Positions 23,588 through 62,736 are shown, numbered from the stretch's first letter. The stretch is 64,000 nucleotides of DNA from an uncultured Acidimicrobiales bacterium (GCA_963725395.1 CAVRYH010000013.1:163720-227719), one strand, 5' to 3'. Notes: generated by a model not told the origin, from the letters alone. Program-made: numbers and translations.

Positions 23588-23796
23588 CGCGGGCCGGACC
23601 CGTGGTCGGTGGTCCATCGCGTCGGGGAGGCCGTCGGTTGTGCGGGCACGGGGCAGATCATACGGAAGGGTTGTGACGCGACGACGGGGTGCCGGTCGCT
23701 TGCCCTCGCATGGCTAAGGAGGCTAGCGGTGCCCCCGTTCCACCCAGGGGATGGGCTCAGCCGGGCGGTCGGGCATCGCTCCCCTCGCCGGCGAAC

Positions 23797-35362: not shown

Positions 35363-35676
35363 GGGCCGGTTCCTTCCGGGCGCGTTGAGCTGAACGTGAC
35401 GCGCCGACACTTGGGCATCGGCACATCCGTGCGCCTGGCCGAGGGGGTACGCCCTAAGGACTCCGGCGTGTGGACGCCACCCCGCCACTGCCGTCTCTTC
35501 GGTGACGATCCCAGGGGGAGTTCCGATCGCCCGCTACACGTGTTGCATCGTCGTCCGGATTCGGCCGTATGCTGTGCAGTGCCCGGCATTGAGGGGCGCT
35601 TGGCGCGGTCGACGAGCTGGCATGTTGGAAATCCAGCAGGTCCGCAGTCGTCCGCCATGGTGCTAGGAAGCTGCGC

Positions 35677-38777: not shown

Positions 38778-38853
38778 TGGTGCGCCCCCCCGGACTCGAA
38801 CCCAGGAACCTGCGGATTAAGAATCCGCTGCTCTACCGTTGAGCTAGGGGCGC
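38778..38853 (-). tRNA. tRNA-Lys (anticodon CTT), CCA encoded
   Basis: Folded by hand on the minus strand as GCGCCCC-TA-GCTC-AACGGTA-GAGC-A-GCGGA-TTCTTAA-TCCGC-...-TTCGAGT-...-GGGGCGC-A-CCA. The acceptor, D and anticodon stems are perfect. The T-arm has one extra nt or a G.G mismatch (see findings). Confidence 0.8.
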
Positions 38854-44930: not shown

Positions 44931-47900
44931 TCAGAACCCGAAGTTGTTGCGGGCCCCGTTGGCGTCGATGAGGGAGTACCCCGGGTTGGTCGGGGAGACG
45001 ATCATCCCCACCGCCTCGAGCCCGGCGTTCCCTCCCGATCCGTGGAACGAGGCGTCGCCGAAGGTGAAGATCCCACCGTCGGAGGCGACCAGCCAGTAGC
45101 CGCGACCGTCGCGGGTGGGGGCCATGCCGTTGATCGGCTGGTTCAACCGGATGTTCCCGGTCGAGCCGTAGAACTGGGCGTCACCGAAGGTGAAGATCCC
45201 ACCGTCGGAGGCCACCAGCCAGTAGCCGTTGCCCGAAGGCGTGGCCGACATGCCCACGACCGGCTTGTTCAACCGGATGTTCCCGGTCGAGCCGTGGAAC
45301 TGGGCGTCACCGAAGCTGAAGACCCCACCGTCGGAGGCCACCAGCCAGTAGCCCCTCCCGTCGAGGGTGCTGGTGATGCCGACGATCGGCTGGTTCAACC
45401 GGATGTTCCCGGTCGAGCCGTAGAACTGGGCGTCGCCGAAGCTGAACACCCCACCGTCGGTCGCCACCAGCCAGTAGCCCTTCCCGTCCGGCGTGGCCGC
45501 GATGCCCACGACCGGCTTGTTGAGAGGCTTGCCGGCCATCGACCCGTAGTTGACCGCCGTGCCGTAGCTGGTGACGGATCCGTTGGACCCGGCCATCCAG
45601 TAGCCGAGCCCGTCCGGCGTGGCTGCCAGCCGGTTGCCACCGGCCAGGGTGGTGGTCACCTTGGGATTGACCGTCAGGGTGAAGCCCTGGCTGACCTCGC
45701 CGCTGGCGTTGGTCGCCTCCCACGTGAGTTGGGTGACCCCGGCGCTGGTCGGTGTCCCCGACAGGGTGCCGGTCCCGTTGCCGTGGTCGGTGAAGGTGAG
45801 CCCACTGGGCAACGTCCCGCTCCAACCGAGCGACGGTGTCGGATACCCCTGGCTTGACACCGTGAAGGAGAAGGGCAGACCCACCGCAGCCCCGGCCGAA
45901 GCGGCGCTGGTGATGGCCGGCGGCGCGGTGACCACGATGGAGAGGTCCTGGGTCGTGGTCGACGTCCCGTTGTAGGCGTTGGTGGCCGTCACCACGATGG
46001 TGCTGGTGCCCGTGGCCGTCGGGGTCCCCGAGATCAGGGCCTCGGCGTTGGCTCCGGCCGCCGGGGCCGGGGTCGACCAGGTCAACCCGGCCGGCAGAGC
46101 GCCGGCCTCGGTGATCGAGGTGACAGCGGGCCCGCCGGTGGCGGTCACCGCGATGGTCCCCGCCTTACCCACCGGGAAGTACTGGGTGGACGGGCTGGTG
46201 AACGTGGGTGGCCCCGAGGGGTCCACCGTGATGGTGACCGCCAGGGTGGCCGTCGACCCAGACGAGTTGGTCGCCGAGATGGTGATCGGGTAGGACCCGG
46301 TGGCCACCGCCGCCGTGGTGCTGGTGATGGTGGCCGATCCCGTCGCCGGGGACGGCACCGTCCAGGTCAATCCGGTCGGAAGGGCCCCGGTCTCGGTGAT
46401 GGTGGCCGCCGGGAAGCCCGTGGTGGTCACCGTGTAGGTGCTGGCCGTCCCCGAGTAGAAGGTCGTGGCCGCGGCGCTGGTGATGGTCGGCGCCTGCGAG
46501 TTGGTCAGCGTGAAGGCCTGGGTGGTCGTTCCCGCGGTGTTGGTGGCCGTAATGGTGATCGGGTAGCTCCCGCCCGAACCGGCCGCCGGGGTGCCCGAGA
46601 TGGTGGCCGTCCCGTTGCCGTTGTCGACGAAGGTGATGCCCGACGGCAGCACGCCCGTCTCGGTGAGAGCGGGTGCCGGCTCACCGGTGGTGGTCACCGT
46701 GGTGGTGAAGGCCGCGCCCACGATCGAGTTGGCCGTGGCGGCACTCGTGATGATCGGGGCACCGCTCTCGTCGAGGACCAGGCTTCCGCCGGCAGCGACG
46801 CTCGTCCAGGTGGAGAGCTCACCGCCGTAGGACTGGCCGTAGGCGACGCCGCCGACGGTTGTGCCCGTCGGGGCGGTCACCGGCACGTTGATCGCACCGG
46901 TGCCCGAGTTGGTCACCGTGACGACACCGTTCTGCTCGGTGGCCTTCACCGTTCCCGCTCCGAGAGCGGTGGACCAGTCGGTCTGCTCGGCGAGAGTCGT
47001 GCCGATGGCGCCCAGGGTCAGCTGCTCGTAGGGCGTGGCCGAGGTGTAATAGGAGTGATAGTCGGCCAGCAGCGGGTTGAGCACCGAGTAGAGCAGTCCG
47101 TCGCCGGTCGTGTCGGCCGTGGCCGGCGGGGTGTAGCCCGCCGGGGGCAGCGCCGTGGTGTACGGAACCGTCCCCATCAGATTGGTCTGGTGGACGTAGG
47201 TCGGCTCGGGGTTGTTGGACAGCATGTTCTGCAGCATCCCGGTCACCACTTGGTTGACGACGTCGCTCCAGGTGAACGCCGTGGTCGAGCACGTGGTGGT
47301 CGAGGTGGACTTGCACTGGCTGTCCGGCGCATCGGCGTCGTACAGGGTGTTGTACTCGTCCAGCTCCTGGGCCTCGGTCGAGGCGTTGTAGAAGATGTTG
47401 ATCGGGTGGCGGGGGACGGCCTCGGCGGTGCCGTCCACGAAGGGCACGCCGGCGGCGTAGGTGGCACCGGTGTACGAGGTGTTGGTGCCCCCCGAGATGT
47501 CCCCGGTGCCGAAGGTGGCGTCAGCCGGATCGGGGTAGGCCTTGGAGGCGTCGGCCCCCACCGCGGTGATCCCGACCGCCTCGAGGGCGGGGATGAAGTA
47601 GGGGTTCTGCTCCCAGGGCGTCTCCTGGGCGTTCTCCACCACCGGAGGGGTCCAGCCGGCCGGCTCGGCCGTGCCTGCGGCACCGTTGTCGGTGTAGGTC
47701 AGCTCGAGCTCACCACCGTTCGCCGTGTTGGTGGTAGAGGTCGGATTGCCCGAGCTGTTGTCGGGCAGGGTGGCCGAGGACGGGGTCGAGAGGTTGCCGA
47801 GGTAGGACCAGGCACCAACCGTGGTGCCGGTCACCGGGGCGCGGTAGACGAGGTAATTGTCCGCGTGGCAGATGGCCTGCCACACCAGGGACACGGACCC

Positions 47901-49388
47901 GCCGGCGCCGACGGTGATGGGGTCGGTCACGTACGCCTGTGACTGGTCGACGCTCGGCGAGTCGGCCGAGTTGAACTGGTCGGTGACCGCGTACTCATAG
48001 GTGCCGGCACCCAGGGTCCCACCGGTCCCGGCGGTCTCGCTGTCGAGGTCGGGGGGGTCGACCGTGGACGGGGTGCCCGGGGCGAGGTCGGCGAAGCCCG
48101 AGTGGTTGCCGGGCACGAACACCTGGGGGTTCTCATACCCGAGGGCGTCAGAGGTGTCGGTCGACTCGGTCAGTCCGAGCCCACCGGTCCCCGGCGTGGC
48201 CCCCGGAGCCGCCGCCGCCTCGGACGTGTTCTGGTTCAGCTCCGCCTCGATGTAGTTCTGGGTGGCGCAGCCCACGTCGAGGTAGGGCGTGTCGTAGGTG
48301 TGGCTGAGCCATCCGAAGTCGTCGGCGTAGGACTTCCCGGTGGTCGGGTCGGTGGCCTGGAACTCGGCCAGCAGCGGGTCGGCGCCGGCGGTGTCACCGG
48401 GCAGGCCCAGCTCGCCCGCCTGGTACTCGTCGGTGCCGCCGTAGTTGAACAGCTGGTCCATGCGGAAGTCGTTGGCCTCGGACCACTGGGCGGCGGTGAC
48501 CACGTCGGCGGGCTGCATGCGCAGCGAGTCGGCATCGGAGTAGTCGTTGTCGTGGACCGTGGTGCTCCAGGCGTTGTCCGGGGTGAAGGTGTCGTCGATG
48601 TCCATCTCGACATAGTTGCGGTCGATCCCGAGGTGGGTGCCAGACGTCACCCAGTTGATGAGCCCCGGGGCGAGCAGGAGCCACTGGAGGTCGGTGGAGC
48701 TGTAGTCGAAGTTGAGCGCCAGCTCGGTCACGTTGGCCTGCGGGTCGGTGGCCGGGTGCTGGTAGACACCGGCCAGGACGGCACCGGTGCTGGAGTCGAG
48801 CCACGCCGTGAAGGGGGCGCCGGTCTCGGCGGTGGCCGGGTAGCCATTGGTGCCCGTCGAGAAGGGCACGGCTCCGGCCAGACCCGGCAGCCCGGCGAGC
48901 CCGGCGGCCGTCAGGGTCCCGTTGGTGCCGTCGAGCACCGCGGCGGTGCTCGAGTCGTTCTCGCCGATCCCGGTGTAGGGAGCGGTGTAGCCGTCGAGCT
49001 GCCGCACGCCGTAGGTCGACTCGTAGGAGAACAGCGAGGTGAGCTGGCCCGAGGCGAAGGCCGCGGGTGAGTCGGCGACCACCACCGCGTTGAAGTTCCC
49101 GATCGTACCGTCGGTCAGGGCGGGCAATGTGACCGTCTCGGCGCCGTAGGTTCCGGCCGCCGTGGCGAGGGTGTAGCTCACTCCCTCACTGGACAGCGCC
49201 GATTGCCATGCCACCGTTGTCGGGTCGGTGGAGCCGCCGCCGATGAGCAGCACGTTGAGACTGAGCTCCGGCGGCGTGGTTGCCGCTTCCGTTGGCTTGA
49301 CCGCCACGGAGAGCGAAGTGAAGACGACCATGGAGACCAGCACACCGGCCGTCACCACTTTGCTGAGGGATCGACGGAATCGATTCAT
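44931..49388 (-). CDS. 1485-aa secreted multidomain protein: N-terminal catalytic-type region, four Ig-like (He_PIG-type) domains, six-blade 42-aa repeat propeller
   Basis: AAGGGAGAG RBS and signal peptide (VVTAGVLVSMVVFTSLSVAVKPTEA). The central region contains MDIDDTF and GWLSHTYDTPYLD. There are four ...G.LP.GLT(F/W)...GT..ISGTP... modules. The C-terminus has six GYWLV(A)(S/T)DGG(V/I)F.FGDA.F.GS blades. Confidence 0.85.
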   Translation of the reverse strand: MNRFRRSLSKVVTAGVLVSMVVFTSLSVAVKPTEAATTPPELSLNVLLIGGGSTDPTTVAWQSALSSEGVSYTLATAAGTYGAETVTLPALTDGTIGNFNAVVVADSPAAFASGQLTSLFSYESTYGVRQLDGYTAPYTGIGENDSSTAAVLDGTNGTLTAAGLAGLPGLAGAVPFSTGTNGYPATAETGAPFTAWLDSSTGAVLAGVYQHPATDPQANVTELALNFDYSSTDLQWLLLAPGLINWVTSGTHLGIDRNYVEMDIDDTFTPDNAWSTTVHDNDYSDADSLRMQPADVVTAAQWSEANDFRMDQLFNYGGTDEYQAGELGLPGDTAGADPLLAEFQATDPTTGKSYADDFGWLSHTYDTPYLDVGCATQNYIEAELNQNTSEAAAAPGATPGTGGLGLTESTDTSDALGYENPQVFVPGNHSGFADLAPGTPSTVDPPDLDSETAGTGGTLGAGTYEYAVTDQFNSADSPSVDQSQAYVTDPITVGAGGSVSLVWQAICHADNYLVYRAPVTGTTVGAWSYLGNLSTPSSATLPDNSSGNPTSTTNTANGGELELTYTDNGAAGTAEPAGWTPPVVENAQETPWEQNPYFIPALEAVGITAVGADASKAYPDPADATFGTGDISGGTNTSYTGATYAAGVPFVDGTAEAVPRHPINIFYNASTEAQELDEYNTLYDADAPDSQCKSTSTTTCSTTAFTWSDVVNQVVTGMLQNMLSNNPEPTYVHQTNLMGTVPYTTALPPAGYTPPATADTTGDGLLYSVLNPLLADYHSYYTSATPYEQLTLGAIGTTLAEQTDWSTALGAGTVKATEQNGVVTVTNSGTGAINVPVTAPTGTTVGGVAYGQSYGGELSTWTSVAAGGSLVLDESGAPIITSAATANSIVGAAFTTTVTTTGEPAPALTETGVLPSGITFVDNGNGTATISGTPAAGSGGSYPITITATNTAGTTTQAFTLTNSQAPTITSAAATTFYSGTASTYTVTTTGFPAATITETGALPTGLTWTVPSPATGSATITSTTAAVATGSYPITISATNSSGSTATLAVTITVDPSGPPTFTSPSTQYFPVGKAGTIAVTATGGPAVTSITEAGALPAGLTWSTPAPAAGANAEALISGTPTATGTSTIVVTATNAYNGTSTTTQDLSIVVTAPPAITSAASAGAAVGLPFSFTVSSQGYPTPSLGWSGTLPSGLTFTDHGNGTGTLSGTPTSAGVTQLTWEATNASGEVSQGFTLTVNPKVTTTLAGGNRLAATPDGLGYWMAGSNGSVTSYGTAVNYGSMAGKPLNKPVVGIAATPDGKGYWLVATDGGVFSFGDAQFYGSTGNIRLNQPIVGITSTLDGRGYWLVASDGGVFSFGDAQFHGSTGNIRLNKPVVGMSATPSGNGYWLVASDGGIFTFGDAQFYGSTGNIRLNQPINGMAPTRDGRGYWLVASDGGIFTFGDASFHGSGGNAGLEAVGMIVSPTNPGYSLIDANGARNNFGF
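45061..45564 (-). repeat. 126-bp tandem coding repeat x4 (propeller blades)
   Basis: Units start at 45061, 45187, 45313 and 45439 (exact 126-nt phase). They share long identical stretches, e.g. CCACCGTCGGAGGC.ACCAGCCAGTAGCC and TTCAACCGGATGTTCCCGGTCGAGCCGT.GAACTGGGCGTC.CCG. Confidence 0.9.
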
Positions 49389-49922
49389 TGGAATTGCTCT
49401 CCCTTGCGCGGCTCCTGCCCAGTGCGCGCCGACGCAATGGGCACAGTAAGCCCAGAGAAAAGTCCTGCCTACCCTGCACTGTCACGAAACCACCCTGCTC
49501 TTTTTCGCCCCGGACCTGGCTCCGACCCGGGCATTTGGGCGGTGGAGCGGCGGACCCCGGTACGCGGTTCGTGGATTCGCCCCGGCTCCCACTGCAGAGT
49601 GTGGGGACCGTCTCGTGGCCTTGCTCCAAGCCCCGGTGGCGACTCCTGAAGACCGGTTGGGCACACACCGGCGTTTTCCTTCCAGGGTGGGCCGACCCTG
49701 TGGTGAGGGTGGTCCGGGCTTCTCGCCAGGGTCGGCGGAATTGTCACTCGGGTGGAGGCGTCGATCGGGACGCACCGACCAGCGGAGGTCAGAGAAAGTC
49801 CGGGGTGTTCACATCCGGGTCGGCTCTCTACTCTCGTACTCGACGATGAACTCGAACCGCACCATCTCCTCATCGACAGTGGCGCGCCCCTGTTCGGCCA
49901 TCCGTGGACCGGCGGCTGGTTG

Positions 49923-51485
49923 ATGGACGTCGCGCTCCTGGCCGAGGGCACCTACCCGTATCACCCCGGGGGCGTGAGCGTCTGGTGTGATCAACTCATC
50001 CGCGGGCTCGCGCCGCACCGGTTCACCGTGCATGCCATCACCGCCGGTGACGATCCGGTGCCGACATGGGAGCTCCCGGACAATGTCGACGGTGTGCGGG
50101 CGATCGCGGTGTGGGGTCCGACCCACCGGGCCGGACGGCCGGCGCGCAACTCGCCTGAGCTGCAGTCCGCCTTCCTCCGGCTGGTCGCATCGATGGCCCA
50201 TCCGGACGGGGGGCCAGAGTTCCTCGAAGCACTCCATCAGTTGTTCGAACTCTCGCAACGGATGTCACTGGTCGGAGCCCTGCACACCACCTCTTCATTG
50301 AACGTCCTCCTCCGTGCCATGGCAGAGGCCAGTCGGAGCGATCGCTTCTCCACCTCCGAACCGGTCACGGTCTCCGTGCAGGACGCCAGGGTGGCGCTCG
50401 ACCTGATCGAGCATCAGTTGCGTCCGCTGTTCGTCCCGCCGCCGCGGGCTGACCTCTGCCATGCCACGGCCAACGGGCTCTCGGTGCTGCTCGGGATCGG
50501 GGCCCACTGGGCCTACGGCACCCCCCTGATCATCAGCGAGCACGGGATCTACCTGCGTGAGCGATACCTGGCGCTCGGGTCCCACCAGTTCTCCCACCCC
50601 GTGAGGGCCATCATGCTGCGCTTCTACAAGCACCTCACGTGGGCCGGCTACCAGATCGCCGGATGCATCGCCCCGGGGAGTGAGTACAACCGCCAGTGGC
50701 TCGAGGCGAACGGGGCGAACCCGGAGCGGATCCATCCCGTCTACAACGGTGTCGACGTCGGCAGCTTCATCGCCCCGGCCGTCGAGCCGGAGGTGCCGAC
50801 CCTGGTTTGGCTGGGTCGGATCGACCCGCTGAAGGACGTGGAGACGCTGATCCGCGCCTTCGCCAACGTGCGGGCGGCGATACCCACCGCCCGGCTGCGG
50901 ATCTTCGGTGGTGCCTCCGCCGAGAACAGGGACTATCTCGAGCGGTGCATCGCCCTTCGGGACTCTCTCGGTCTGGCCGGATCGGCCGTGTTCGAGGGCC
51001 GGGTCGACTCGGTGGTCGAGGCCTATCACGCCGGGCACGTCGTGTTGCTCAGCAGTATCTCTGAGGGATTCCCCTACACCCTCATCGAGGCGATGGCGTC
51101 CGGCATGCCCACCGTCGCCACCGATGTGGGAGGGGTGAGGGAGGCCACCGGTGATGCCGGACTGATCGTGCCACCGCGGAACCCCCGTGCCATGGCCGAA
51201 GCGTGCCTGCAGCTCCTGTCGAACGCTTCGCTCCGCCGGTCCATCGGGAACGCCGCCCGCAATCGGATCCTGTCGATGTTCACCCTGGAGCAGAGCCTGG
51301 CGGTGTTCGCCGACCTCTACCGCGAGGCGACCGGCAAGGTCTCGAGTGCCACCGTCCTGAGGGCGGACCGGGTCGGGGCGCGCCAGAAATACGCGGTGTC
51401 GAGATCCCGCCTGGAGCCCGCGCCCAGGAACGCGTTCGACCTCATCCAATGGAGCGCATTGGCGCTCCCGCTCGGGGCGGGGTGA
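49923..51485 (+). CDS. PelF-like glycosyltransferase (DUF3492 N-terminal domain + GT4)
   Basis: ATG at 49923. MDVALLAEGTYPYHPGGVSVWCDQLIRGL matches the EG.YPY..GGVS.W...L signature of PelF/DUF3492. The GT4 EX7E motif EGFPYTLIEAMASG is present. Confidence 0.8.
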   Translation: MDVALLAEGTYPYHPGGVSVWCDQLIRGLAPHRFTVHAITAGDDPVPTWELPDNVDGVRAIAVWGPTHRAGRPARNSPELQSAFLRLVASMAHPDGGPEFLEALHQLFELSQRMSLVGALHTTSSLNVLLRAMAEASRSDRFSTSEPVTVSVQDARVALDLIEHQLRPLFVPPPRADLCHATANGLSVLLGIGAHWAYGTPLIISEHGIYLRERYLALGSHQFSHPVRAIMLRFYKHLTWAGYQIAGCIAPGSEYNRQWLEANGANPERIHPVYNGVDVGSFIAPAVEPEVPTLVWLGRIDPLKDVETLIRAFANVRAAIPTARLRIFGGASAENRDYLERCIALRDSLGLAGSAVFEGRVDSVVEAYHAGHVVLLSSISEGFPYTLIEAMASGMPTVATDVGGVREATGDAGLIVPPRNPRAMAEACLQLLSNASLRRSIGNAARNRILSMFTLEQSLAVFADLYREATGKVSSATVLRADRVGARQKYAVSRSRLEPAPRNAFDLIQWSALALPLGAG

Positions 51486-51487
51486 GC

Positions 51488-52931
51488 ATGACGACGCAAT
51501 CGGAAGCGGTGCGCTCGGATGCTGCGGCCGGGGCCCCCGTGCCGGACGCCGCCGCCGGTCGCATCACCGCGTGGGTGCTGAGGGATCCGCGGCTGGCAGC
51601 CCAGTGCGCCTCAGCCGTCGACGCGCTGGAGGTGGCGGCGCGGTTGGAGACCCACGGGGTGAGCAGCCGGGTGGCCATCGACTCGTTCGGGTTCCCCGAC
51701 GTGTTCAGCGTGGCCGAGGCCGTCTACCGCTCACTGCCCTTCGTCGATCTCGCGGCCCCGGAGCCGACCGCCCCGGCGATGGGTGGGCCGGCAGACCTCC
51801 TCCGGGGAGCGCTCTATGCCCTGCCCGCCGTGTTCCTCCCAGTGGTGGTGACCGGGTTCGCGCTGCACCTGAAGTGGTGGGTGCTCCCCGTGGGGCTCAC
51901 TGTTGCCTGGGCCATGGGGCAGGCAACCGCCACCATCGCCTGGTCGTTGCGGGGCCGGGAGGACGAGCGGAGCGACTCGCTGATCGCATTCGTGTCCATC
52001 GTGGCCAGCGCCCTCGTCTGTCTGGTGTGCGCCGTGTCGGCCACGCGGATCGTCGGGGGGAACGAGACCAGCGTCATCCTCGCCGTCGCCGTCGCCGCCT
52101 ACATCGCGGCCAGCGGCATCCTCGTGTTCCAGCGGGCCGAGTGGATGCTGGCCGCCAGCATGCTGCCGGCTGTGGTCGGGTCGCTTCTCATCCTCGGCGT
52201 CCTGCCCGTGGCGATCACCCACCGGGCCGCCGCGTGGTGCGTGGTGGCCACCGCGATCCTGGTGGTGGCCATGGCCAACCGGCACCTGCTGGCGCCCCGT
52301 TGGCGTCGACCGGTCCTGGTCCGGGGTGACCATGCCCGGGCCGTCAAGTACTTCGGGTACGGCCTGGGTTGTGGCGTCTTCATCTCGGTGTTCATCGTGT
52401 GTGCCGCAGACCTCGACGGCAGCGGTGGCGCGCTCGGTCATCGCCGTCGTCCCCCTCCTGGCGACCCTGGGACTCATGGAGTGGCAACTTCGCTCGTTCC
52501 GCTGCCGGGCCACGATGGCCCTGGCGACCAGCCGGGACGTCCGACAGTTCGGTCTCCGGGCCCGGGGGGCGTTCGCCAGGTCGGTCGGCTGCTATGTGGC
52601 CGCTCTCGCCCTCTTGTCCGCCGCAGGTGTGGCGGTCGGGGACGCCAGACGGGCCGGTGACGTGCCGATACTGCTTGCCTCGGTGGGAGCTCTCGGTATC
52701 GCGTTCTTCCTCGCACTCCTGCTGGCGTCCTCGGGCCGCGTCAACCTGGTGCTCTTGGGTTGGGGTGTCAGCCTCGGCCTGCTCGCCGCGCTGGCGTCCG
52801 TCGTGTTCTCCGCCCACCACCGCATCGCCCCGCTGACCGGGCTCACCATGCTGTTGGCGGCGGCCGGGACGGCGATCCTCATGCTTTCCCTGCTGTCGAT
52901 TCGAGTCCTTGGATCACCTCTGAGCTACTAG
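51488..52931 (+). pseudogene. polytopic membrane protein of the polysaccharide locus, reading frame interrupted near 52.41-52.44 kb
   Basis: Frame 2 (from the ATG at 51488) encodes TM-rich sequence up to ..FIVCAADLDGSGGA, then turns into Arg/Pro/Gly-rich shadow until 52660. Frame 0 picks up TM-rich sequence (ARSVIAVVPLLATLGLMEW...) and runs to the TAG at 52931. An alternative reading is two genes, the second with a GTG start near 52425. Confidence 0.5.
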
Positions 52932-52958
52932 CTCCGAGCCGAAGAGAAGGAAAACCCC

Positions 52959-53954
52959 ATGTCCATGACCGTTGCGATCACCGGAGCCGACGGATTCATC
53001 GGTTCCCACCTGGCCGAGGCCTTGGCGGGTTCGGGCTACCGCGTCCGGGCCATGGTGCAGTACAACTCGTTCGGATCCTGGGGGTGGATCGAGTCGCTCG
53101 ACAGCGAGGCGCTCGCTTCGATCGAGGTGGTCCCCGGCGACGTCCGGGACCGTGACTCCGTGCTGTCACTGCTGACCGGTGCCGACATGGTGTGCCACCT
53201 TGCCGCGCTGATCGCCATTCCCTACTCGTACCAGGCTCCCTGGTCGTACCTCGAGACGAACGCCGGCGGCACGTTGAACGTGCTGGAGGCCGGACGCAAG
53301 CTCGGTACCGAGCGGATCGTCTGCACGTCGACCAGCGAGGTCTACGGGAGCGCCCAGGTCGTACCCATCACCGAGGACCATCCCCTCCAGGCCCAGTCGC
53401 CCTACTCCGCGTCAAAGATCGCCGCCGACAAACTGGCCGAGAGCTACCACCTGAGCTTCGGGCTCCCGGTGGTCACGCTCCGGCCGTTCAACACCTACGG
53501 CCCCCGCCAGTCGGCCCGGGCCGTGATACCGACGGTGATCTCCCAACTCGCCGCCGGCCGCCGGGCCATCTCCCTCGGCTCGTTGACGCCGACACGCGAC
53601 TTCAACTTCGTGCTCGACACCGCCCACGCGTTCCGGGCGATGCTCGAGGCCCCGGTCGACGAGGTCGTCGGGAGGACGTTCAACGCCGGGTCCGGCGTGG
53701 AGATCTCAGTGGCGGACACCGTCAAGCTCATCGCCGAGCTCATGGGCACCGAGGCGGAGATCGAGGTCGACAAGGCGAGGTTCCGGCCCGAACGATCCGA
53801 GGTGACCCGCCTGGTGTCCGACAGTTCGGCCATTCGGCGGGCTGCGTCATGGAAACCCGCCCACACCCTCTCCGAGGGCCTGGCCACAACGATCGAGTGG
53901 TTCTCCAATCCCGACAACCTCCGCCGGTACAAGACCGACCAGTACAACGTCTGA
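52959..53954 (+). CDS. NAD-dependent sugar epimerase/dehydratase (extended SDR)
   Basis: AGAAGGA RBS. ITGADGFIGSHL (GxxGxxG) and the catalytic YSASK are present, with the typical C-terminal W.P...L.EGL. Confidence 0.85.
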   Translation: MSMTVAITGADGFIGSHLAEALAGSGYRVRAMVQYNSFGSWGWIESLDSEALASIEVVPGDVRDRDSVLSLLTGADMVCHLAALIAIPYSYQAPWSYLETNAGGTLNVLEAGRKLGTERIVCTSTSEVYGSAQVVPITEDHPLQAQSPYSASKIAADKLAESYHLSFGLPVVTLRPFNTYGPRQSARAVIPTVISQLAAGRRAISLGSLTPTRDFNFVLDTAHAFRAMLEAPVDEVVGRTFNAGSGVEISVADTVKLIAELMGTEAEIEVDKARFRPERSEVTRLVSDSSAIRRAASWKPAHTLSEGLATTIEWFSNPDNLRRYKTDQYNV

Positions 53955-53982
53955 CCAGATTCCGCAGGACAGGGGCAGAGCA

Positions 53983-54744
53983 ATGACCGATGTCATCGAC
54001 AGGGAGAGTCCGACGAGCGTGGACACCCGGCACGTGGTGATCCTGGCTGGGGGGAAGGGCGTTCGTCTGCGGCCGTACACCACGGTCATCCCCAAGCCGC
54101 TCGTGCCCATCGGTGAGCAGTATTCGATCCTCGAGATCGTCCTCCGCCAGCTGGCCGCCAAGGGGTTCCGTCATGCCACCCTGGCCATCGGCCACCTCGG
54201 TCAGCTGATCCGGGCCTATGTCGGGGACGGCTCGCAGTGGGGGATCGAGGTGGACTACGTGCACGAGGAGTCTCCGCTCGGGACCATCGGCCCCGCCCTC
54301 ATGGTCCTCGACCGCCTGCCGGACCACTTCCTGCTCATGAACGGCGACATCCTCACGGATCTCGACTACGGCCAGCTGATGGACGACCACGTGGCGTCGG
54401 GCGCCCCGTTGACGGTGGCCACCTACAACCGTGTCCACCAGGTCGATTTCGGCGTCCTCGAGGTGGTGGACCAGAGGATCATCAACTTCACGGAGAAGCC
54501 ACCCATGACCTATTCGGTCAGCATGGGGATCTACGGCGTCAGCAAGCGGCACCTCGAGCGCTACACGCCGGGGCTGCCCTACGGATTCGACGAGCTGATG
54601 CTCGATCTCATCGAGCGGGGCACGCTGCCCTTCAGCTACAGCTTCGACGGGTTCTGGCTCGACATCGGGCGACCCGACGATTACGACCAGGCCAACCGGG
54701 AGTTCGACGTTCTCGGTCCTCGGTTGCTGCCGGGCCAGCGGTGA
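53983..54744 (+). CDS. sugar-phosphate nucleotidyltransferase
   Basis: ILAGGKGVRLRPYT...PKPLVPI is the canonical NTP-transferase N-terminal motif. The product is 253 aa. Confidence 0.85.
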   Translation: MTDVIDRESPTSVDTRHVVILAGGKGVRLRPYTTVIPKPLVPIGEQYSILEIVLRQLAAKGFRHATLAIGHLGQLIRAYVGDGSQWGIEVDYVHEESPLGTIGPALMVLDRLPDHFLLMNGDILTDLDYGQLMDDHVASGAPLTVATYNRVHQVDFGVLEVVDQRIINFTEKPPMTYSVSMGIYGVSKRHLERYTPGLPYGFDELMLDLIERGTLPFSYSFDGFWLDIGRPDDYDQANREFDVLGPRLLPGQR

Positions 54745-55664
54745 GCAGGTACCTCCTCCTCGGCGCGAACGGCTTCCTCGGGAGCCAGGTACGTGAAGCC
54801 ATCGAGCGCTCCGGCGACTCGTCGTTCATGGTCGCCGTAAGCGGCCACCAGCCGCGCCACCCGCTGCGGGCGACGTGCCACTGGCGCCGGATGGACCTAG
54901 TGCGGGCTTCGGTACAGGACTTCTCGGCCCTATTCGACTACAGCAAACCCGACGCCATCATCAACTGCGCCGGATCGACGTCGGGCTCCCCGCAGCTGCT
55001 CGAGGCCGTCAACACCACCGTCGTCGACAAACTGGTCAAGGCGCTGGCCGCCACCGAACCGATCCCCCTGGTCCACCTGGGTTCCGCCGCTGAGTACGGG
55101 TTCCAGCCCGAGGGCATCGCCATCACCGAGACGGCTACCGCCCGACCGGTCGGCGACTACGGGCGGACCAAGCTGGTGGCCACCGAACTGGTGCGGGACA
55201 TGGTCGATCGCGGTGCCATCCGCGCCACCGTGCTCCGTGTGTTCAACCCGGTGGGGAGGAGGGCCCCGGCCAACTCACTGGCCGGAACCGCGGTCCGTGA
55301 GATCCGCCGGGCCCTGGCCACCAACAAGTCGTTCATCACACTCGGCTCGCTCTGCTCGTATCGGGACTTCCTTTCCACGAACGATGTCGTCTCCGCTGCC
55401 CTCCGGGCGGCCCACTGTGCCGACACGCCCCCGATCCTGAACGTCGGACGGGGAGTGGCCATGTCGTGTCGGTCGATGGTCGAACTCCTCGCCGCCGCCG
55501 CCGGGTTCGACGGTGACGTCTTCGAGACAGAGAGCGGGTCCAGGCGGTCGGCGGCGGTGCCGTGGCAGAAGGCCAGCGTCACCCTGCTCCGGGAGCACCT
55601 GCAGTGGGTTCCCACCACCTCGATCTCCGAAGCTATGTCCGACCTCTGGCAGTCAGGGAGCTGA
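54741..55664 (+). CDS. NAD-dependent epimerase/dehydratase family protein (SDR)
   Basis: The GTG at 54741 overlaps the upstream stop as GTGA. LLLGANGFLGSQV (GxxGxxG) and YGRTK (YxxxK) are present. The track ORF from 54237 is shadow upstream. Confidence 0.75.
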   Translation: MSRYLLLGANGFLGSQVREAIERSGDSSFMVAVSGHQPRHPLRATCHWRRMDLVRASVQDFSALFDYSKPDAIINCAGSTSGSPQLLEAVNTTVVDKLVKALAATEPIPLVHLGSAAEYGFQPEGIAITETATARPVGDYGRTKLVATELVRDMVDRGAIRATVLRVFNPVGRRAPANSLAGTAVREIRRALATNKSFITLGSLCSYRDFLSTNDVVSAALRAAHCADTPPILNVGRGVAMSCRSMVELLAAAAGFDGDVFETESGSRRSAAVPWQKASVTLLREHLQWVPTTSISEAMSDLWQSGS

Positions 55665-55667
55665 ACC

Positions 55668-57513
55668 ATGTGTGGAATCATTGGTGTCACCGGGGTCGAC
55701 GATGTGGTGGTCACCCTCCTCGAGGGGCTGGGCCGGCTGGAGTACCGCGGCTACGACTCGGCCGGCGTGGTGCTCACGGGTCGGGACGGCCTGTGGAGGT
55801 GCCGGGCTGCCGAGGGGACCCACTCCGTCCGTGATCTCCGTGGACTGGCGGAGCACGCCCCGACGGGGTCGGCCACCGGTGTCGGCCACACCCGCTGGGC
55901 CACCCACGGGCAGCCGACGACGGGCAACGCCCACCCGCACTTCGATTGCACCGGCCGGTTGGCCCTCGTGCACAACGGCATCATCGAGAACTATGTGGAG
56001 CTGGCCGACCGGTTGCTGGCTGCCGGGCACGTCCTCGAATCGCAGACCGATTCGGAGGTCCTCTGCCACCTGGTGGAATCCGAGATGGGCGACGGCGTGT
56101 GCCTGGCGGAAGGGGTTCGTCGGGCTTTGCGCCAGGTCCGCGGCTCCTACGCCGTGGCTGCAGTCCATGCGGACGAGACCGATCTGGTGGTCGCGGCACG
56201 GCGGATCTCGCCCCTGATTGTCGGCATCGGTGACGACGCGGTCGTTCCTGGCTTCGGACATCCCGGCCTTGCTCGGCTCCACCCGGCGCCTGTTCGCCAT
56301 CGAGGACGATCAGCTCGTGGAGCTCCGACCCGGGACGATGCGGGTGACGGCTCTCGACGGCACCCCGGTCGAGGCGACCGCGCTCACCATCGACTGGGAC
56401 GTCGCCGCTTCCCAGCAGGGCGGATTCGACGACTTCATGACCAAGGAGATCCATGAGCAGCCGAAGGCGGTGGCCGACACGTTGCTCGGCCGGTGCCGGC
56501 AGGACGGGGCACTGGTCCTCGACGAGGCGTCCGGTCTGGGTGCCGATGAGCTCGCTGCCGTCGAGCGCGTGTGCATCGTCGCCTGCGGAAGCAGCTATCA
56601 CGCAGCGCTGGTGGGCAAGTTCGCCATCGAGAAATGGGCGCGACTGCCCACCCAGGTCGACATCGCTAGCGAGTTCCGCTACCGAGATCCCGTCCTCGAC
56701 CACGGGACACTGACCATCGGGGTGAGCCAGTCCGGCGAGACGGTGGACACCCTGCAGGGTCTCCGTCAGGCCCGTTCCCTCGGGTCGAAGGTGCTGGTCG
56801 TCTCCAATGTGGTGGATTCGTCGATGGCCCGTGAGGCCGACGGCGTCCTCTACACCAGGGCCGGCCCGGAGATCGGCGTGGCGGCCACCAAGACCTATCT
56901 CACTCAGATCGTGGCCCTCGAGCTGCTGGCCCTGGTACTGGCCCAGGCCCGGGGGACCCTTTCTCCGGCCGGCGTTGCCGTCCTCATGGACCAGATGCTC
57001 GGACTGCCCGGTCTGCTCGACTCGGCACTGGAGCGGACCAAGGACGTGGCTGCGGTGGCCGAGGAGCTGTCCGACGCCCGGGACTTCTTCTTCCTCGGGC
57101 GCCACGTCGGCCATCCGGTGGCCATGGAGGGGGCACTGAAGTTGAAGGAGATCTCGTATCTCCGGGCCGAGGGGTATCCGGGCGGTGAGCTGAAGCACGG
57201 GCCCATCGCGCTCATCGAGCCGGGCACGGTGGTGGTGGGCGTGGCCACCCGCAACGTCCTGTGGGAGAAGATGTGCTCGAACATCCAGGAGGTGAAGAGT
57301 CGCGGGGCGACCATCGTCCTGGTTGGGAACGATGACGATGAGCAGACCGCACAGCTGGCCGACCACATGCTATGGGTGCCCCGCACCGAGCCGATGCTGT
57401 CGCCGGTGGTCGACGCCATCCCCCTGCAGTTCCTCGCCTACTGGCTGGCCAGGGCCCACGGTCACGACGTGGACCGACCCCGCAACCTGGCCAAGACGGT
57501 GACCGTGGAGTGA
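55668..57513 (+). pseudogene. glmS: glutamine--fructose-6-phosphate aminotransferase, frame broken by one extra nt near 56244
   Basis: MCGIIG (Ntn Cys), RGYDSAG and HTRWATHG carry frame 0 up to ..PLIVGIGDDAV. The protein continues as FLASDIPALL... in frame +1 through the two SIS domains to the C-terminal LAKTVTVE. Removing 1 nt at 56241-56244 gives a continuous, full-length GlmS. Confidence 0.8.
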
Positions 57514-57712
57514 GCCATGACGGTGTGGCCGCGGGGTGAGAGGCTGGTCCGGACCACCGGTCACTCTGCTTGGTGTCGGAAGTGCCGGAGGGGCACGGGG
57601 GTTCGATCGAAACGATGCGAGGACGACGGATGGAACTTCGAGGATGGCGGTGGCGGGGCTGGGTCCACGGTCTCGATCCCGTGGCGTCGACTGATCCCTC
57701 GCGCCGCTGTTG

Positions 57713-58659
57713 ATGCCCGGCCGGGTGGGCCGCGTCGCGGTCTTGGTCGTGGTGCTGGCCGTAGTGTGCATCGTGGTCATCCAGGTGCTGCCGTCGGGAT
57801 CGACCGCCTCCCGACGCTCGAACGACGAAGGGGATTCCGGCCTCGTGCAGCGACTCGCGGTACCCGCTTACATCGACCCGGCGAGCGATCCCGGGGCGTG
57901 GGTCCAGCTGTCCGGCTCGCATGCGGTGGGGCTCGTCGTCGCCAACGTGAGCAACGGACCCGGAACGCAGGCCGTGCCGGCATGGTCCACGGCCATCCAC
58001 CGGGCCCACCTGGCGGGCACCACGGTGCTGGGCTATGTCGACACCGGTTACCTCGGACGTCCGAACGGGGACCGGTCGGCTGGGCTGGTCACCAGATCCG
58101 GTTCGACCGGCTTCACCGCGTGGATCAGACAGATCGAGGGCGACATCGAGGCGTGGTACGAGTTCTACGGGTCCGACATCGGTGGGATCTTCATGGACCA
58201 GACCCCCAGCGAGTGCGGGCCCACCGCGTCCTCGACGCTGTACGCCGAACAGTACCGGGCCCTGACCGCCTTCGTCAGGGAGTTGCGGCCCGGCGCCGTG
58301 ACCGCGCTCAATCCCGGGACAGCGGTCGGGCAGTGCTTCGAGGACTCCGCAGACGTGCTGGTGACGTTTGAGGGCACCTACGGGGAGTACACCGACACCG
58401 GTGGCTCGCCCAACGAGGCCTATCGGCCTCTGGACTGGACGGCGGGAGGGCCCGGAAAGACATGGCACATCATCTACGGCGCGGGCACCGTGGCGGAGAT
58501 GCGGCACGCGTTGGCATTGAGCAGGGTCAGGGGTGCAGGCTACGTCTTCGTGACCGACGCCGGGCCGCCTGACCCCTTCGACCAGCTTCCCCCCCCGCCT
58601 ACTGGTCGGCCGAGGAGAGTGCGGGCGCGGGAACCGCCTCGCTCAATCCGGCCACCTGA
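57713..58659 (+). pseudogene. spherulin-4 family (Sph3/GH135-like) protein, frame broken in a C8 tract
   Basis: An N-terminal TM anchor is followed by AVPAYIDP..DPGAW, VVANVSNGPG, VLGYVDTGY, GGIFMDQTP, ALNPG and VTFEGTY, a spherulin-4 pattern. After the C8 run (58589-58596) the track frame becomes Arg/Pro/Ser-rich and overlaps the convergent gene. The other frame reads AYWSAEESAGAGTASLNPAT and stops at 58659. Confidence 0.65.
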
Positions 58660-58677: not shown

Positions 58678-61600
58678 TCAGAGCGCCGAGGCGTCGAGCA
58701 GCTCCCCGCCGTCCCGGTCGTCGTCACCGAGGGCGAGGGCCAGGTTGCGGCGTGAGTCGACACCCAGCTTCCGGTAGGCCTTGGCCAGGTGCCCCTCGAC
58801 GGTCTTGACCGTGACATAGAGGTCGGCGGCGATCCCCTGGTTTGTCAGGCCGGTCGCCGCCAGGCGGGCCACGCGGCGCTCGGCCGGCGTGAGCGAGTCC
58901 GGCCCGATCGATCCGAGCCTCCTCGGCCGGGCGCCGGCGGCGCGGAGCTGGATGCCCGCCGCCTCCACCAGTTGATGAGCCCCACACAGTGATGCGAGGT
59001 TGGCCCCGCGCCGCAGGACGCCACGAGCCTCCTCTTTCTTCTTGCGCTCGACCAGCACCATGCCGAGCTCGACGAGCGCGTAGGCCGATTCGAGGCGAGC
59101 CGGCGATGGCTCCAACAGGTCGACCGCCTCGGTGAGCAACGCGGTCCGCTCCTCCAGGTCGGGCGTGGCCGCCGCTGACGCCCGCAGGGCGATGCCGAGA
59201 GAGCGGGTGGCCCCGAATGCCCGGGCCAGCTTGAGATGTTCGTCAGCCAGTCGCCCGGCTTCCGTCCACTCGCCCAGCGTCGACAGCACCATCGTCGCGT
59301 CGGCCCGCCACGAGTTGAGCGCCGGATTCACCAGACCGGCGCGCTGGGCGTCGCTCCCCGCCCCCATGAACTGTTCGAGACCCTCGCGGAGGAGGCCCCG
59401 CGCAACCAGCAGGCGGCCGCGCTCGACGCGGACGGTGGCTTCGAAGTTCGGCGACCCGTCCTGTTCGACCCGGAGGCGTTCCAGGATCCGCTCGGCCTCG
59501 TCGGTCCTTCCCTGGCGAAGCAGCGCGTCGGCGAGCCCGAGTGTCGGGCGGCTCTGTGCGCCACCCCCGAGCTGGATGCCGAGTCGCCTCCCGCGACGGT
59601 AGACTTCCTCCGCCGCGGTCAGCGACCCCTGCCATAGGAGTGAGGTCGCTGACAGGAGCGAAGCGCGCTGCTCGAAGGCGGTGAGCCCACGATCACGGGC
59701 ATGACGAAGAGGAGAGGCGAGAAGTTCGTCGACCACCGTGAACCGATCGGTGCACAGCAGGCCGAAGAAGGTCATCGACTGGATCTCCACGACGACCGGG
59801 TCGGAGCTGAACAGCTGCTCGGCGTCGACCGCCTGCTCGAGTACCACGGCCAGCTCGTCGGCCGTGACCGACGCGCCACCGGCGGCCTCGTGGAGGCTGA
59901 TGAAGTTCCGGGCCAGGCGGACGATGGCCGAGTCGGAATCACGCGCCGCGCCGGGCGCGGCAACCAACGCCGTCAGCCCCGACAGGTTCTGGCTCCGCTC
60001 CGCCGGCCGTCCCGACCTCATGGCCAGCGTCAGCTCGAACTCGACGCGGAGATCGTGGTCGACGCCTTCGAGCCGGTCGCCGAGCCCTTGGACGGCCCGC
60101 ACCGTCTCCTCCCGCAGGGAAGGTGCCTGGGACAGGTTCCGGAGCAGTCCCACGGCGAGCTCGATGACCTCGGTGTCCTCGGTGCCACCGAGCTCGAGGG
60201 CCCGGCGGAAGTGGGGGAGTGCCGTGGATTGGCTGCTGGCCAGTTCCGCCGAGGCGAGATCGAGATAGAGACCACCCCCGCGGGAAGCCGGTGGTGACTC
60301 CACCAGGGCGCGGTTGAGGCAACGGAGCGCCAGGGCGAGGTCACCGGCTTCCCGTGCCACACGGCCCATCCGATGGAGCCGTTCGGCGGTCTGGGCGTCA
60401 CCGACGGGCTCGGTGGCCAACAGGTGCTCGGCGACCGTCGCGTCGGCATCTCCCTGCTCACTGAGCAGTTCCGCGGCACGGGCGTGGAGGTGTGAGCGCC
60501 GGGCCGTCGGGATGTCCCGGTAGATGGCCCATCGGATCAGCGGTGAACTGAACGCAAAGGGCCGGCCCGGTCGGAAGAGCTCCATGTGGGCCGCAGCATC
60601 GGCGGCCCGTTCCGCGGCCAGCGGATCGATCTTCGCCAGGGTACGGGCAACCGTCGGATCCGCGCCGTCGCCGAGGATGGCACAGGCCTGCAGGAGATCG
60701 GAGGCGGCCACCGGAAGTTGAGCCAACCGGGCCAGGACGAACTGGGTGATCTTCGGTGCCGGTACGCGCTCGACGAGTCCGGCCATGTCGGCCACGGGGC
60801 GGACGTCGTGGCGCGTCAGACACGGGAGCAGTGTCTTGACGAACAAGGGCATGCCGAGCGTCGCCTTCACGCACGCCGTCACAAAAGCCGGGTCCGGCTC
60901 CTGACCGAAGAAACCCGAGAGCATGAGAGCCACACTGTCGTACTGCAGCGGCTCGAGGATGAACTGGCGCGTCTCCGGGTCGGTGAGCAACCCGTCGACC
61001 GGCCGCACTCCCTCGCCCGGATGGAGAGGTCGGGCACTGACCAGGAGCCAGACCTGCTGGTTCTCCAGGCGACGCACCATGTACCGGAGGGTGGCCAGGG
61101 TCTCGCGGTCGGCCAGGTCGGCGTCGTCCACCGCCAGCAGGACCGGTGCGGTGGCCCGGAGGGAGAGGACCAGGGTATGGAATAGATGGCTGACTTCCGC
61201 CGGGTCATGGCGGTCGGTCTCCGATGAAGCCAAGCGCTCCCAGAGAGAGTTCGCCTGACGGGATGCCGCTTGGTTCTCGCCGGCGGACGCCACGGCGGAT
61301 TCGACCAGTTTGCCGAGGACCGAGAAGGGAATCTGCTTCTCGACGTCGCCCCCTCTGGCCCGGAGGACGACGCACTCGGCATTGCCGGCCACCTCGCAGG
61401 CGGCATTGACCAATGCGGTTCTCCCCGACCCCCACGGTCCCTCGATGGCGATGCACCGGCTGGGAACCTGCAGGGTCCTGGTGAAGATGGCCTCGAACTC
61501 GCGGAGCAGAGGCTCGCGCTCGAGCAACCGGGGACCCGACTCACTAGTCGAACGACGATCGGTTGCCGGGGTGGTCAGGTCAGAGATGGCCACGATCGCC

Positions 61601-61824: not shown

Positions 61825-62049
61825 GAGATGCCCAAGTGGAATTGTAGGGCATGGCCTATGACCGGCGCAATTGGCCCGATATCACGCCATGGGTCGCCGA
61901 ACTCGGGATCCGACGACCGACCCTCATACCGCTCCGACAACTGACCCTCGATACCAATCAGGACTACCAGTGCATGCCCTGAGCTGGTTGTCGACGATGC
62001 CTCGCGACATCGTCGCTTATGTCGCGCGAGATCACAAAGCGGAGGGAGT

Positions 62050-62607: not shown

Positions 62608-62736
62608 GGAGGGAAAGATAACAGAAAATACAAGAAATAAGTTGCTGGAAACAATCTACGCAAGTATTCTGGTGATGCAGCCCGGACGTCCGTCGCCGAC
62701 GGTTATCTATTTCGGGTGTGCACGAAGGGGGCCGCC

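Follow-up and report, generated by a model that had tools for sequence, protein, structure and literature searches.

A candidate Pel/galactosaminogalactan-like exopolysaccharide locus with a PelF-type glycosyltransferase, an Agd3-type deacetylase and an Sph3-type hydrolase in an uncultured Acidimicrobiales bacterium

We analysed a 64 kb stretch of DNA from an uncultured Acidimicrobiales bacterium (CAVRYH010000013.1:163720-227719, hereafter the window) and found that it carries a gene cluster that probably encodes a synthase-type exopolysaccharide system of the Pel/galactosaminogalactan (GAG) kind, with a cationic polymer of the α-1,4-N-acetylgalactosamine (GalNAc) type as its product. The cluster is a co-directional train of pelF, a membrane gene, a first short-chain dehydrogenase/reductase gene (SDR1), a sugar nucleotidyltransferase gene, a second such reductase gene (SDR2), glmS and a spherulin-4 gene of glycoside hydrolase family 135 (GH135), from which a deacetylase gene is transcribed divergently (Table 1). 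All the elements listed by a first-pass annotation of this DNA were found where it had placed them when an open reading frame (ORF) map was combined with profile searches, and a product of the kind that it had proposed, a hexosamine-rich and probably partly deacetylated, hence cationic, polymer, remains the best reading. The gaps between genes of the train are only -4 to 28 nt, which makes an operon arrangement plausible, the exception being 196 nt 5' of the spherulin-4 gene. A Pel/GAG-like polymer is the most likely product because all of the accompanying modifying families act on α-1,4-linked GalNAc or galactosamine (GalN) where they have been characterised. The association of these genes far exceeds chance, their order being kept in 37 genomes and on plasmids of three other genera.

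Table 1 Features of the locus, with positions counted from the first letter of the window
Feature	Position	Strand	Basis
Secreted Agd3-type polysaccharide de-N-acetylase, 1485 aa (predicted activity)	44931..49388	-	profile, AlphaFold2 model, Foldseek
Divergent promoter/leader region, 534 bp	49389..49922	.	alignment with 7 relatives
PelF-type cytoplasmic family 4 glycosyltransferase (GT4) with N-terminal DUF3492, 520 aa; putative polymerase	49923..51485	+	Pfam, NCBIfam
Polytopic membrane partner of PelF, ~481 aa after frame repair; putative exporter	51488..52931	+	predicted fold
SDR1, extended SDR near LegB-type nucleoside-diphosphate N-acetylhexosamine 4,6-dehydratases, 331 aa	52959..53954	+	NCBIfam, PDB
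Sugar-1-phosphate nucleotidyltransferase, 253 aa	53983..54744	+	Pfam NTP_transferase, E = 7e-35
SDR2, divergent GalE-like epimerase/reductase, 307 aa	54741..55664	+	Pfam Epimerase, E = 2e-31
GlmS, glutamine--fructose-6-phosphate transaminase, frame-broken near 56240	55668..57513	+	Pfam domains
Membrane-anchored (N-terminal) spherulin-4/GH135 (Sph3-like) glycoside hydrolase, frame-broken	57713..58659	+	Pfam Spherulin4, E = 7.7e-33
LAL-type (large ATP-binding, LuxR-family) regulator in convergent orientation to the GH135 gene; candidate regulator of the pathway	58678..61824	-	domains of orthologue

The PelF-type glycosyltransferase and its membrane partner

The placement of the first gene of the train in the PelF family, proposed in the first-pass annotation, was borne out by Pfam matches to DUF3492 (E = 4.4e-47) and Glyco_trans_1_4 (E = 1.2e-32) and by a full-length match to the NCBIfam PelF equivalog model NF038011, which the protein passes with 180.4 bits, where the cut-off is 100. 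It carries EGTYPYHPGGVSVW from residue 8 and the EX7E motif, as EGFPYTLIE, from residue 381, and is ~30% identical to proteobacterial PelF. This soluble enzyme is the sole glycosyltransferase in the locus, the membrane protein encoded next to it having no glycosyltransferase domain.

That membrane protein, once its reading frame is repaired, has 100% of its length covered in the alignment to intact homologues of 480 aa. It has no match in Pfam or NCBIfam, the PelG model included; with the PelG model, none of 58 members of the family was matched at E ≤ 1 and none of 10 remote members at E ≤ 0.01, and hhalign of the family against PelG of Burkholderia thailandensis returned a probability of 0.1%. 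Homology to PelG was therefore rejected at the sequence level. An AlphaFold2 model of an intact orthologue (P0001, pLDDT 86) was compared with the PDB by Foldseek, and the top 43 matches were MATE, WzxE or MurJ proteins and no others (TM-score 0.4-0.55, probability ~1.0, best E = 4.6e-4). The protein is thus predicted to have the two-lobed fold of 12-14 transmembrane (TM) helices of the MOP superfamily (Wzx/MATE/MurJ). The first-pass annotation had recognised neither PelG nor Wzx in the locus; the absence of a PelG sequence match stands, but the predicted fold is that of the superfamily to which Wzx belongs. In the model, an N-terminal cytoplasmic helical domain precedes the MOP-like transmembrane bundle, and this extra domain is conserved as 'VDPLEVAARLETHG.S..VA.D.FGY.DVF'.

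An exhaustive profile search gave 973 representative proteins of this membrane family. One cluster among them, found on six independent contigs, is a natural fusion of the DUF3492-GT4 enzyme to the membrane domain; NCBI HUJ05309.1, encoded in a metagenome-assembled genome (MAG) of Streptosporangiaceae, belongs to it. Where the two are separate, the membrane gene always lies directly 3' of pelF, in the 37 Acidimicrobiales genomes, in the locus of a remote family member, in Streptomyces californicus and in Deinococcus. The fusion is good evidence that PelF and the membrane protein work as one unit.

Modifying enzymes and sugar supply

The divergent 1485-aa product had been described in the first-pass annotation as secreted and was otherwise left unplaced. 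Its N-terminus (about residues 1-35) is indeed signal-peptide-like, and profile and Foldseek comparisons now identify it as an Agd3-type (CBM87 and CE18) protein with the three-domain architecture of that deacetylase and, by prediction, its activity. Pfam searches with the first 900 residues gave weak but correctly ordered matches to CBM87_Agd3 and Agd3_CE; the orthologue in the closest related locus (L001) lies above the CBM87_Agd3 cut-off, and among 396 homologues many carry both PF25116 and PF25115. A profile of 26 homologues matched the Agd3 crystal structure (PDB 6NWZ) at E = 1.9e-15. The AlphaFold2 model (pLDDT 86, pTM 0.88) had as its top Foldseek neighbour 6nwz_A, at E = 2.5e-24 and a TM-score of 0.72 normalised to Agd3; the alignment covers all three domains and extends over 926 columns, gaps included, against a chain of 665 residues, with ~14% identity. 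The second neighbour was the deacetylase domain of NDST1.

The modelled core comprises a CBM87-like α/β/α domain, a CE18-like barrel with an inserted β-sandwich (~448-570) and a C-terminal β domain that ends at ~875. Beyond it lie four He_PIG immunoglobulin (Ig) domains (about residues 885-1240) and a C-terminal region (residues 1250-1485, window 44931-45700) of five clear 42-residue repeats followed by a degenerate tail. The repeat unit reads 'P.VG...T.DG.GYWLVASDGG.F.FGDA.F.GS', or in its shorter form 'GYWLVASDGGxFxFGDAxFxGS'; the repeats match no Pfam or NCBIfam family, a BPL_C match being spurious, and look like a β-propeller-type module.

The Asp-Asp pair of the Agd3 motif CM1 is kept as D265/D266, which are invariant in 120 homologues and align to D377/D378 of Agd3, the catalytic base and a metal ligand (PMC7229062). 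In the family profile R660 aligns to R613 of CM3. H733, in 'YVHQTN', is nearly invariant and lies within the stretch matched by Pfam Agd3_CE, which makes it a candidate counterpart of the CM4 catalytic His, H668 in Agd3. The motif CM2 is altered and is considered below.

At the other end of the cluster, the first-pass assignment of the last gene to the spherulin-4/GH135 family agrees with a Pfam Spherulin4 score of 114 bits against a cut-off of 30. The protein also matched the Sph3 entries 5C5G and 5D6T in the PDB (E = 1e-6), and in the alignment to 5C5G the segments 'FFDETP' and 'VVFEATY' correspond to 'FMDQTP' and 'VTFEGTY' of the window protein. The catalytic Asp and Glu in these two segments are invariant across the aligned orthologous GH135 loci, and the adjacent Glu167 position is either E or Q; the catalytic pair of Sph3 is named in PMC12054363.

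The genes for sugar supply are less easily placed. SDR1 scored 456.7 bits on the LegB model TIGR04180, slightly below its cut-off of 475, and its best PDB sequence matches are dTDP-glucose 4,6-dehydratases and epimerases. The nearest characterised relatives of the nucleotidyltransferase are mannose-1-phosphate guanylyltransferases and MurU-type enzymes, each below the family cut-off. SDR2, whose GTG start overlaps the preceding stop codon (GTGA), gave a weak NCBIfam GalE match and PDB sequence matches to 4-epimerases and GDP-6-deoxy-hexose reductases; it shares 26% identity with the GalE-like SDR encoded in locus L043 and is kept in loci without SDR1 and the nucleotidyltransferase. It is our candidate for a UDP-GlcNAc/UDP-GalNAc 4-epimerase. 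GlmS shows one GATase and two SIS domains spread over two frames, and the intact orthologue in L001 (614 aa) scores 763 bits on GlmS models. Most lineages with the cluster keep a dedicated glmS. The first-pass annotation had counted the locus's own GlmS among its parts; such a private glmS is not distinctive, because a canonical pel locus of B. thailandensis carries GH114, glmS and galE as well. The sugar-nucleotide module is the weakest point of the Pel/GAG-like assignment, and a modified hexosamine is a possible product.

Conservation, mobility and regulation of the cluster

The synteny expected from the first-pass annotation was found in relatives. A scan of one genome per species located the membrane gene in 37 loci, all in Acidimicrobiales MAGs, and tblastn gave the same order throughout: the Agd3-like gene (-), then PelF, membrane protein, SDR1 and nucleotidyltransferase (where present), SDR2, GlmS, in some loci further genes, and GH135, with the LAL regulator (-) beyond. 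In the closest locus, L001, the genes are intact and run colinear with those of the window. One Acidimicrobiales subclade is without SDR1 and the nucleotidyltransferase and keeps SDR2 and GlmS. The glmS-GH135 gap contains a GH114 (Ega3-type) gene in other loci, and in a deep clade two GH114 genes replace both glmS and GH135. The locus of the remote family member consists of an Agd3-like gene followed by genes for GlmS, a GalE-like SDR, the DUF3492 glycosyltransferase, the membrane protein, Spherulin4 and GH114.

Carriers other than MAGs were sought by tblastn against plasmids. A linear plasmid of S. californicus FDAARGOS_1209 (NZ_CP070243.1) carries Agd3-like, pelF, membrane, SDR, nucleotidyltransferase, SDR, spherulin-4 and GH114 genes, and the gene train is also present on a plasmid of Deinococcus sp. 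QL22. The MOBF plasmid NZ_CP126484.1 of Kocuria rosea RP1 (locus L047, 6514-15582) carries the cassette in minimal form, a five-gene core of Agd3-like, pelF, membrane, spherulin-4 and GH114 genes between two copies of one transposase (WP_284563886.1), an arrangement that looks like a composite transposon. GH114 genes, annotated as 'endo alpha-1,4 polygalactosaminidase', thus occupy the same position in the remote locus, in S. californicus, Deinococcus and K. rosea, and in relatives of the window, and therefore every known α-1,4-GalNAc/GalN-specific enzyme class accompanies the PelF-membrane pair. Annotation pipelines name the glycosyltransferase 'PelF' and the hydrolase 'spherulation-specific family 4 protein', and call the deacetylase and the membrane protein 'hypothetical'.

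Agd3-like genes were also met in other settings. Stand-alone homologues away from pelF, with GH36, GH15 and GH9 genes as neighbours, are 87% (L041/L042) and 65% (L039) identical to the window protein over the catalytic region, and a homologue in Streptacidiphilus is likewise stand-alone. The 87%-identical protein (P0066) was set aside as a comparator for frame breaks, being a stand-alone copy in another genomic context. In several Acidimicrobiales loci the Agd3-like gene is preceded, just upstream, by another copy.

The LAL gene adjoins the cluster in nearly all Acidimicrobiales loci, and its orthologue in L001 has AAA_16, TPR and GerE domains, with LuxR-type C-terminal helix-turn-helix matches in the NCBIfam search. 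This regulator probably controls both divergent promoters. The spacer between them holds conserved blocks when aligned with the seven relatives. Upstream of the deacetylase gene, TACCCTGCACT and CACCCTGCTCT form a pair at 49470-49501, 21 bp apart, and exact matches to either occur nowhere else in the window. Upstream of pelF, three + strand copies of [CG]AGGGT[GAC]G (CAGGGTGG-like) occur with 22-bp spacing at 49683, 49705 and 49727 (span 49683-49734). Counted as this looser motif there are six copies in the spacer, four of which fall in the 500-bp bin from 49500, the highest count of all bins. The two repeat sets share a core motif, each set being oriented with its gene, and they may form an operator array. 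A further copy of the motif, at 61925, precedes the start of the LAL regulator gene by ~100 nt.

The spacer also holds a 25-codon upstream ORF, MNSNRTISSSTVARPCSAIRGPAAG (49846-49923), whose stop codon overlaps the pelF start in TGATG. Its start is an invariant 'ACGATGA', and its position, length and overlap with pelF are kept in six relatives, the peptide itself being loosely conserved. The only Rfam matches were two tRNAs; no riboswitch and no other known RNA came up for the spacer or the rest of the window. Scans for sigma-70 promoters and terminators, run on the spacer and the GH135 region, gave nothing informative.

Directly upstream of the cluster, at 40302-44782, lie a lysyl-tRNA synthetase gene and then a gene for a 982-aa protein that combines an N-terminus resembling metallophosphoesterases with a membrane region and with a domain of the LPG_synthase_C (LysX/MprF) type; together they form a split lysX-like pair that is syntenic in the closest relatives only. 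We considered a genomic island between the tRNAs at 38.8 and 62.0 kb and dropped the idea because the flanking lysS/lysX-like genes share synteny with relatives. The 36-40 kb stretch has a reduced G+C content (0.64-0.65) and ends at the tRNA gene at 38781-38853. Elsewhere the window encodes a 583-aa collagen-triple-helix-repeat protein (33737-35488, -; Pfam Collagen, E = 2e-42), an HC2 histone-H1-like protein (37155-37712, -), an Ice_binding-like (DUF3494) protein (62716-63936, +) and an N6_N4 DNA methyltransferase (22109-23617, -).

Alternative readings and comparison with known systems

If the locus makes a Pel/GAG-like polymer, GlmS would increase the amount of hexosamine available, and the products of the SDR and nucleotidyltransferase genes would turn out the activated sugar, most likely UDP-GalNAc formed through 4-epimerisation by SDR2, with SDR1 and the nucleotidyltransferase as an accessory branch of uncertain product. 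The cytoplasmic PelF-type GT4 would polymerise this sugar, and the MOP-fold membrane protein would dock PelF and take the chain through the membrane. Once outside, the chain would lose part of its N-acetyl groups to the secreted Agd3-type enzyme and so become cationic and adhesive. Its Ig domains and C-terminal repeats probably retain the enzyme at the cell surface or at the polymer, and the membrane-anchored GH135 protein would trim or release α-1,4-GalNAc stretches. Of this scheme, the assignments to families and folds, the linkage of the genes and the fusion of PelF to its membrane partner are observed; which sugar is used, which way the chain is moved, whether the deacetylase is active and how the genes are regulated are inferred.

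Several observations weigh against this reading. MOP-fold proteins normally flip lipid-linked units, and export of a free polymer is an assumption taken over from PelG. In the literature we found no experimental work on any such cluster, and nothing relevant on PelF paired with a spherulin or on DUF3492. A tblastn search with three GH114 proteins as queries detected no such gene in the window. The sugar may be something other than plain GalNAc, since SDR1 comes nearest to a 4,6-dehydratase. In the deacetylase, CM2 reads H363-T-Y-D-T367 ('SHTYDTPY', window ~48290-48300), and because 'HTYDT' replaces HxxxH one metal-binding His is missing; of the 120 closest homologues, at least 90% have Thr in place of the second His, next to an invariant Asp. 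This His is required in Agd3, whose H514A mutant is inactive (PMC7229062). The corresponding motif is HTYTH in S. californicus, HTYSH in K. rosea and HTWDH in a distant subgroup, and the mapping of CM2 rests on these bacterial homologues because a CM1-CM2 sub-profile gave no alignment to Agd3 in the PDB. The deacetylases of the Acidimicrobiales clade may work with an altered metal site in which the His has been replaced and the adjacent Asp gained. Finally, in this assembly three genes are interrupted by single-base frame breaks, one each in the membrane gene, glmS and the GH135 gene; scanning the full 64 kb with a Viterbi frame tracker based on codon usage brought up no internal frame switch beyond these three.

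The breaks bear on whether the cluster, while of the type described, is inactive in this organism. Alignment with relatives places an extra nucleotide near 52434 in the membrane gene ('CTCGG' against 'CT-GG') and another near 56240 in glmS ('GCGG' against 'GC-G'). In the GH135 gene, whose span in the first-pass annotation crosses the change of frame without comment, one nucleotide is missing from a C8 run at 58589-58596 that relatives do not have; on repair, the C-terminus regains the conserved 'YWS.E' ending of the relatives. Nine suspicious ORF pairs that an overlap heuristic had raised as frameshifts elsewhere proved to be separate intact genes, that is, false positives, and since the tracker found no further switch the breaks are clustered in this operon. 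Three breaks inside 7.2 kb and none elsewhere in 64 kb would arise by chance with a probability of ~0.002-0.014 if breaks were uniform over ~57 kb of coding sequence, and two of the three lie outside homopolymers, which speaks for real lesions and for the membrane, GlmS and GH135 genes being pseudogenes. Nevertheless, we think this somewhat unlikely. The closest relatives, which are long-read environmental MAGs, are also split here (L007, L017, L025, L036, L038), and the GH135 break falls in the only homopolymer of eight or more bases in the window, as a classic consensus error would. Past each break the codon-position GC signal and the amino-acid conservation are undisturbed, premature stops or larger deletions were not seen in these genes, and the deposited protein set merely truncates the gene (P0002).

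A second question is which sugar is used. SDR1, the nucleotidyltransferase, SDR2 and GlmS could together make an NDP-6-deoxy-N-acetylhexosamine or another modified hexosamine, which PelF would incorporate alone or along with GalNAc, so that the product would not be a poly-GalNAc of the Pel/GAG type. The score of SDR1 on the LegB 4,6-dehydratase model, the nearness of the nucleotidyltransferase to guanylyltransferases and the likeness of SDR2 to GDP-6-deoxy-hexose 4-reductases all point this way, as does the fact that in Acidimicrobiales, Streptomyces and Deinococcus alike the triad of SDR1, nucleotidyltransferase and SDR2 is found together with pelF and its membrane partner. Against this, one Acidimicrobiales subclade is without the first two members of the triad and retains SDR2 with GlmS, the remote locus has an ordinary GalE-like SDR instead, and K. 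rosea has none of the three. The linked hydrolase and deacetylase families are moreover specific for α-1,4-GalNAc/GalN among their characterised members (PMC7229062, PMC12054363), and we judge a product other than poly-GalNAc to be unlikely.

It is less likely still that the MOP-fold protein is a true flippase handling a lipid-linked oligosaccharide for a wall-attached glycopolymer or glycoconjugate. WzxE, MurJ and MATE are its structural neighbours and the locus has no other exporter, as such a role would suggest, but no ORF in or near the locus encodes a priming phosphoglycosyltransferase, a Wzy polymerase, a ligase or a chain-length regulator, and in one lineage the membrane protein is fused to the PelF-type enzyme. 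A long chain is also implied by a CE18 enzyme with a long binding cleft and by endo-acting GH135 and GH114 hydrolases. Least probable is that the targets of the Agd3-like and GH135 proteins are foreign polymers, fungal GAG or bacterial Pel, broken down for nutrition or antagonism, and not a self-made polymer: close Agd3-like paralogues do stand alone beside GH9, GH36 and GH15 genes in other genomes, but here the linkage to glycosyltransferase, exporter, glmS and sugar-nucleotide genes is tight and wide.

Returning to a Pel/GAG-like system as the favoured reading, we tentatively advance a broader, joint proposal, which we think somewhat unlikely to hold as a whole. The PelF partner would constitute a previously unnamed exporter family of ~970 clusters at 50% identity in Actinomycetota and Deinococcota; PelF and this partner would be the two components of a synthase, joined into a single chain in some lineages, for which PelD, PelE and PelG are not needed; with CE18, GH135 and GH114 enzymes the pair would make up a compact mobile cassette, plasmid-borne in Streptomyces, Deinococcus and Kocuria; and the fungal genes for GAG modification could derive from this bacterial cassette or be its sister. 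To our knowledge, two cationic biofilm polymers of GalNAc are known, Pel and GAG, and for neither has it been settled how the chain gets through the membrane. A PelF with a different MOP-fold partner, and with neither PelD nor PelE, would offer a simpler system in which to ask what a minimal Pel-type synthase is. All three fungal GAG-modifying enzyme families in one bacterial, often plasmid-borne, cassette bear on the proposed bacterial origin of the fungal cluster. These questions are directly testable because the gene train exists in the cultured strains S. californicus FDAARGOS_1209, K. rosea RP1 and Deinococcus sp. QL22. For soil and peat Acidimicrobiales, which are known almost solely from MAGs, an adhesive cationic matrix polymer is predicted.

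The Campylobacter legionaminic-acid pathway has a GDP-GlcNAc front end comprising the GlmS-like PtmA/F, PtmE and LegB. The window locus resembles it in bringing together GlmS, a nucleotidyltransferase and a LegB-like dehydratase, but differs in having no aminotransferase, acetyltransferase or NeuB/NeuA-type genes and in an SDR1 that falls below the LegB cut-off. With Wzx/WzxE, MurJ and MATE the membrane protein shares its predicted fold; in contrast to them it belongs to none of their sequence families, carries the extra N-terminal cytoplasmic domain, and comes from a family linked or fused to a cytoplasmic polymerising glycosyltransferase instead of a lipid-linked repeat-unit pathway.

The closest precedent is the set of bacterial Agd3 operons described in silico by Bamford et al. 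2020 (Nat Commun, PMC7229062), which contain a cytoplasmic glycosyltransferase together with a membrane protein that has multiple spans, frequently GH114 genes and, in some Actinobacteria, spherulin-4, the taxa given in the sections concerned being Actinobacteria and Deinococcus-Thermus. The window matches these operons in the company that its Agd3 homologue keeps and in its taxonomy. The operon sections of that paper do not identify the glycosyltransferase as PelF-type or give the fold of the membrane protein, and they hold no functional data on these operons. Compared with what is described there, the Acidimicrobiales version adds the LegB-like SDR, the nucleotidyltransferase, the second SDR, glmS and the LAL regulator, and its deacetylase has the long Ig and repeat extensions and the changed CM2 motif. 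Since such operons had already been described in silico, the novelty here is moderate, and the first-pass annotation had overstated it, although it was right that none has been characterised experimentally. The interest of the locus lies mainly in its pairing of PelF with a MOP-fold protein, in the altered metal motif and in a cassette that is mobile.

In common with Pel (pelABCDEFG of Pseudomonas aeruginosa, pelDEA_DA-FG of Bacillus cereus), the window has a PelF-type enzyme of GT4 and DUF3492 followed directly by a protein of ~12 TM helices, together with a dedicated deacetylase and an endo-α-1,4-N-acetylgalactosaminidase, and a partly de-N-acetylated α-1,4-GalNAc polymer would be expected from both. 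Accessory galE, glmS and GH114 genes are known from some pel loci (PMC7112168). The window locus differs in lacking PelD, PelE and any GGDEF/GAF protein, every ORF between 41.8 and 61.8 kb being assigned elsewhere, and thus has no receptor for cyclic di-GMP. Its membrane partner has no detectable relation to PelG, as compared by sequence, its deacetylase is of the CE18/CBM87 type and not CE21 (PaPelA) or CE26 (BcPelA_DA), and its hydrolase is GH135 and not GH166.

From the fungal GAG cluster (uge3, gtb3, agd3, ega3, sph3) the window locus is set apart by a PelF and MOP-fold pair in place of the large integral-membrane Gtb3, and by the absence of GH114 from the window. SDR2, with its weak GalE matches, is a candidate for the part of Uge3. 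The locus shares with that cluster both an Agd3-type deacetylase and an Sph3-type GH135 protein, to which its relatives add the Ega3-type GH114 and one remote locus a GalE-type epimerase.

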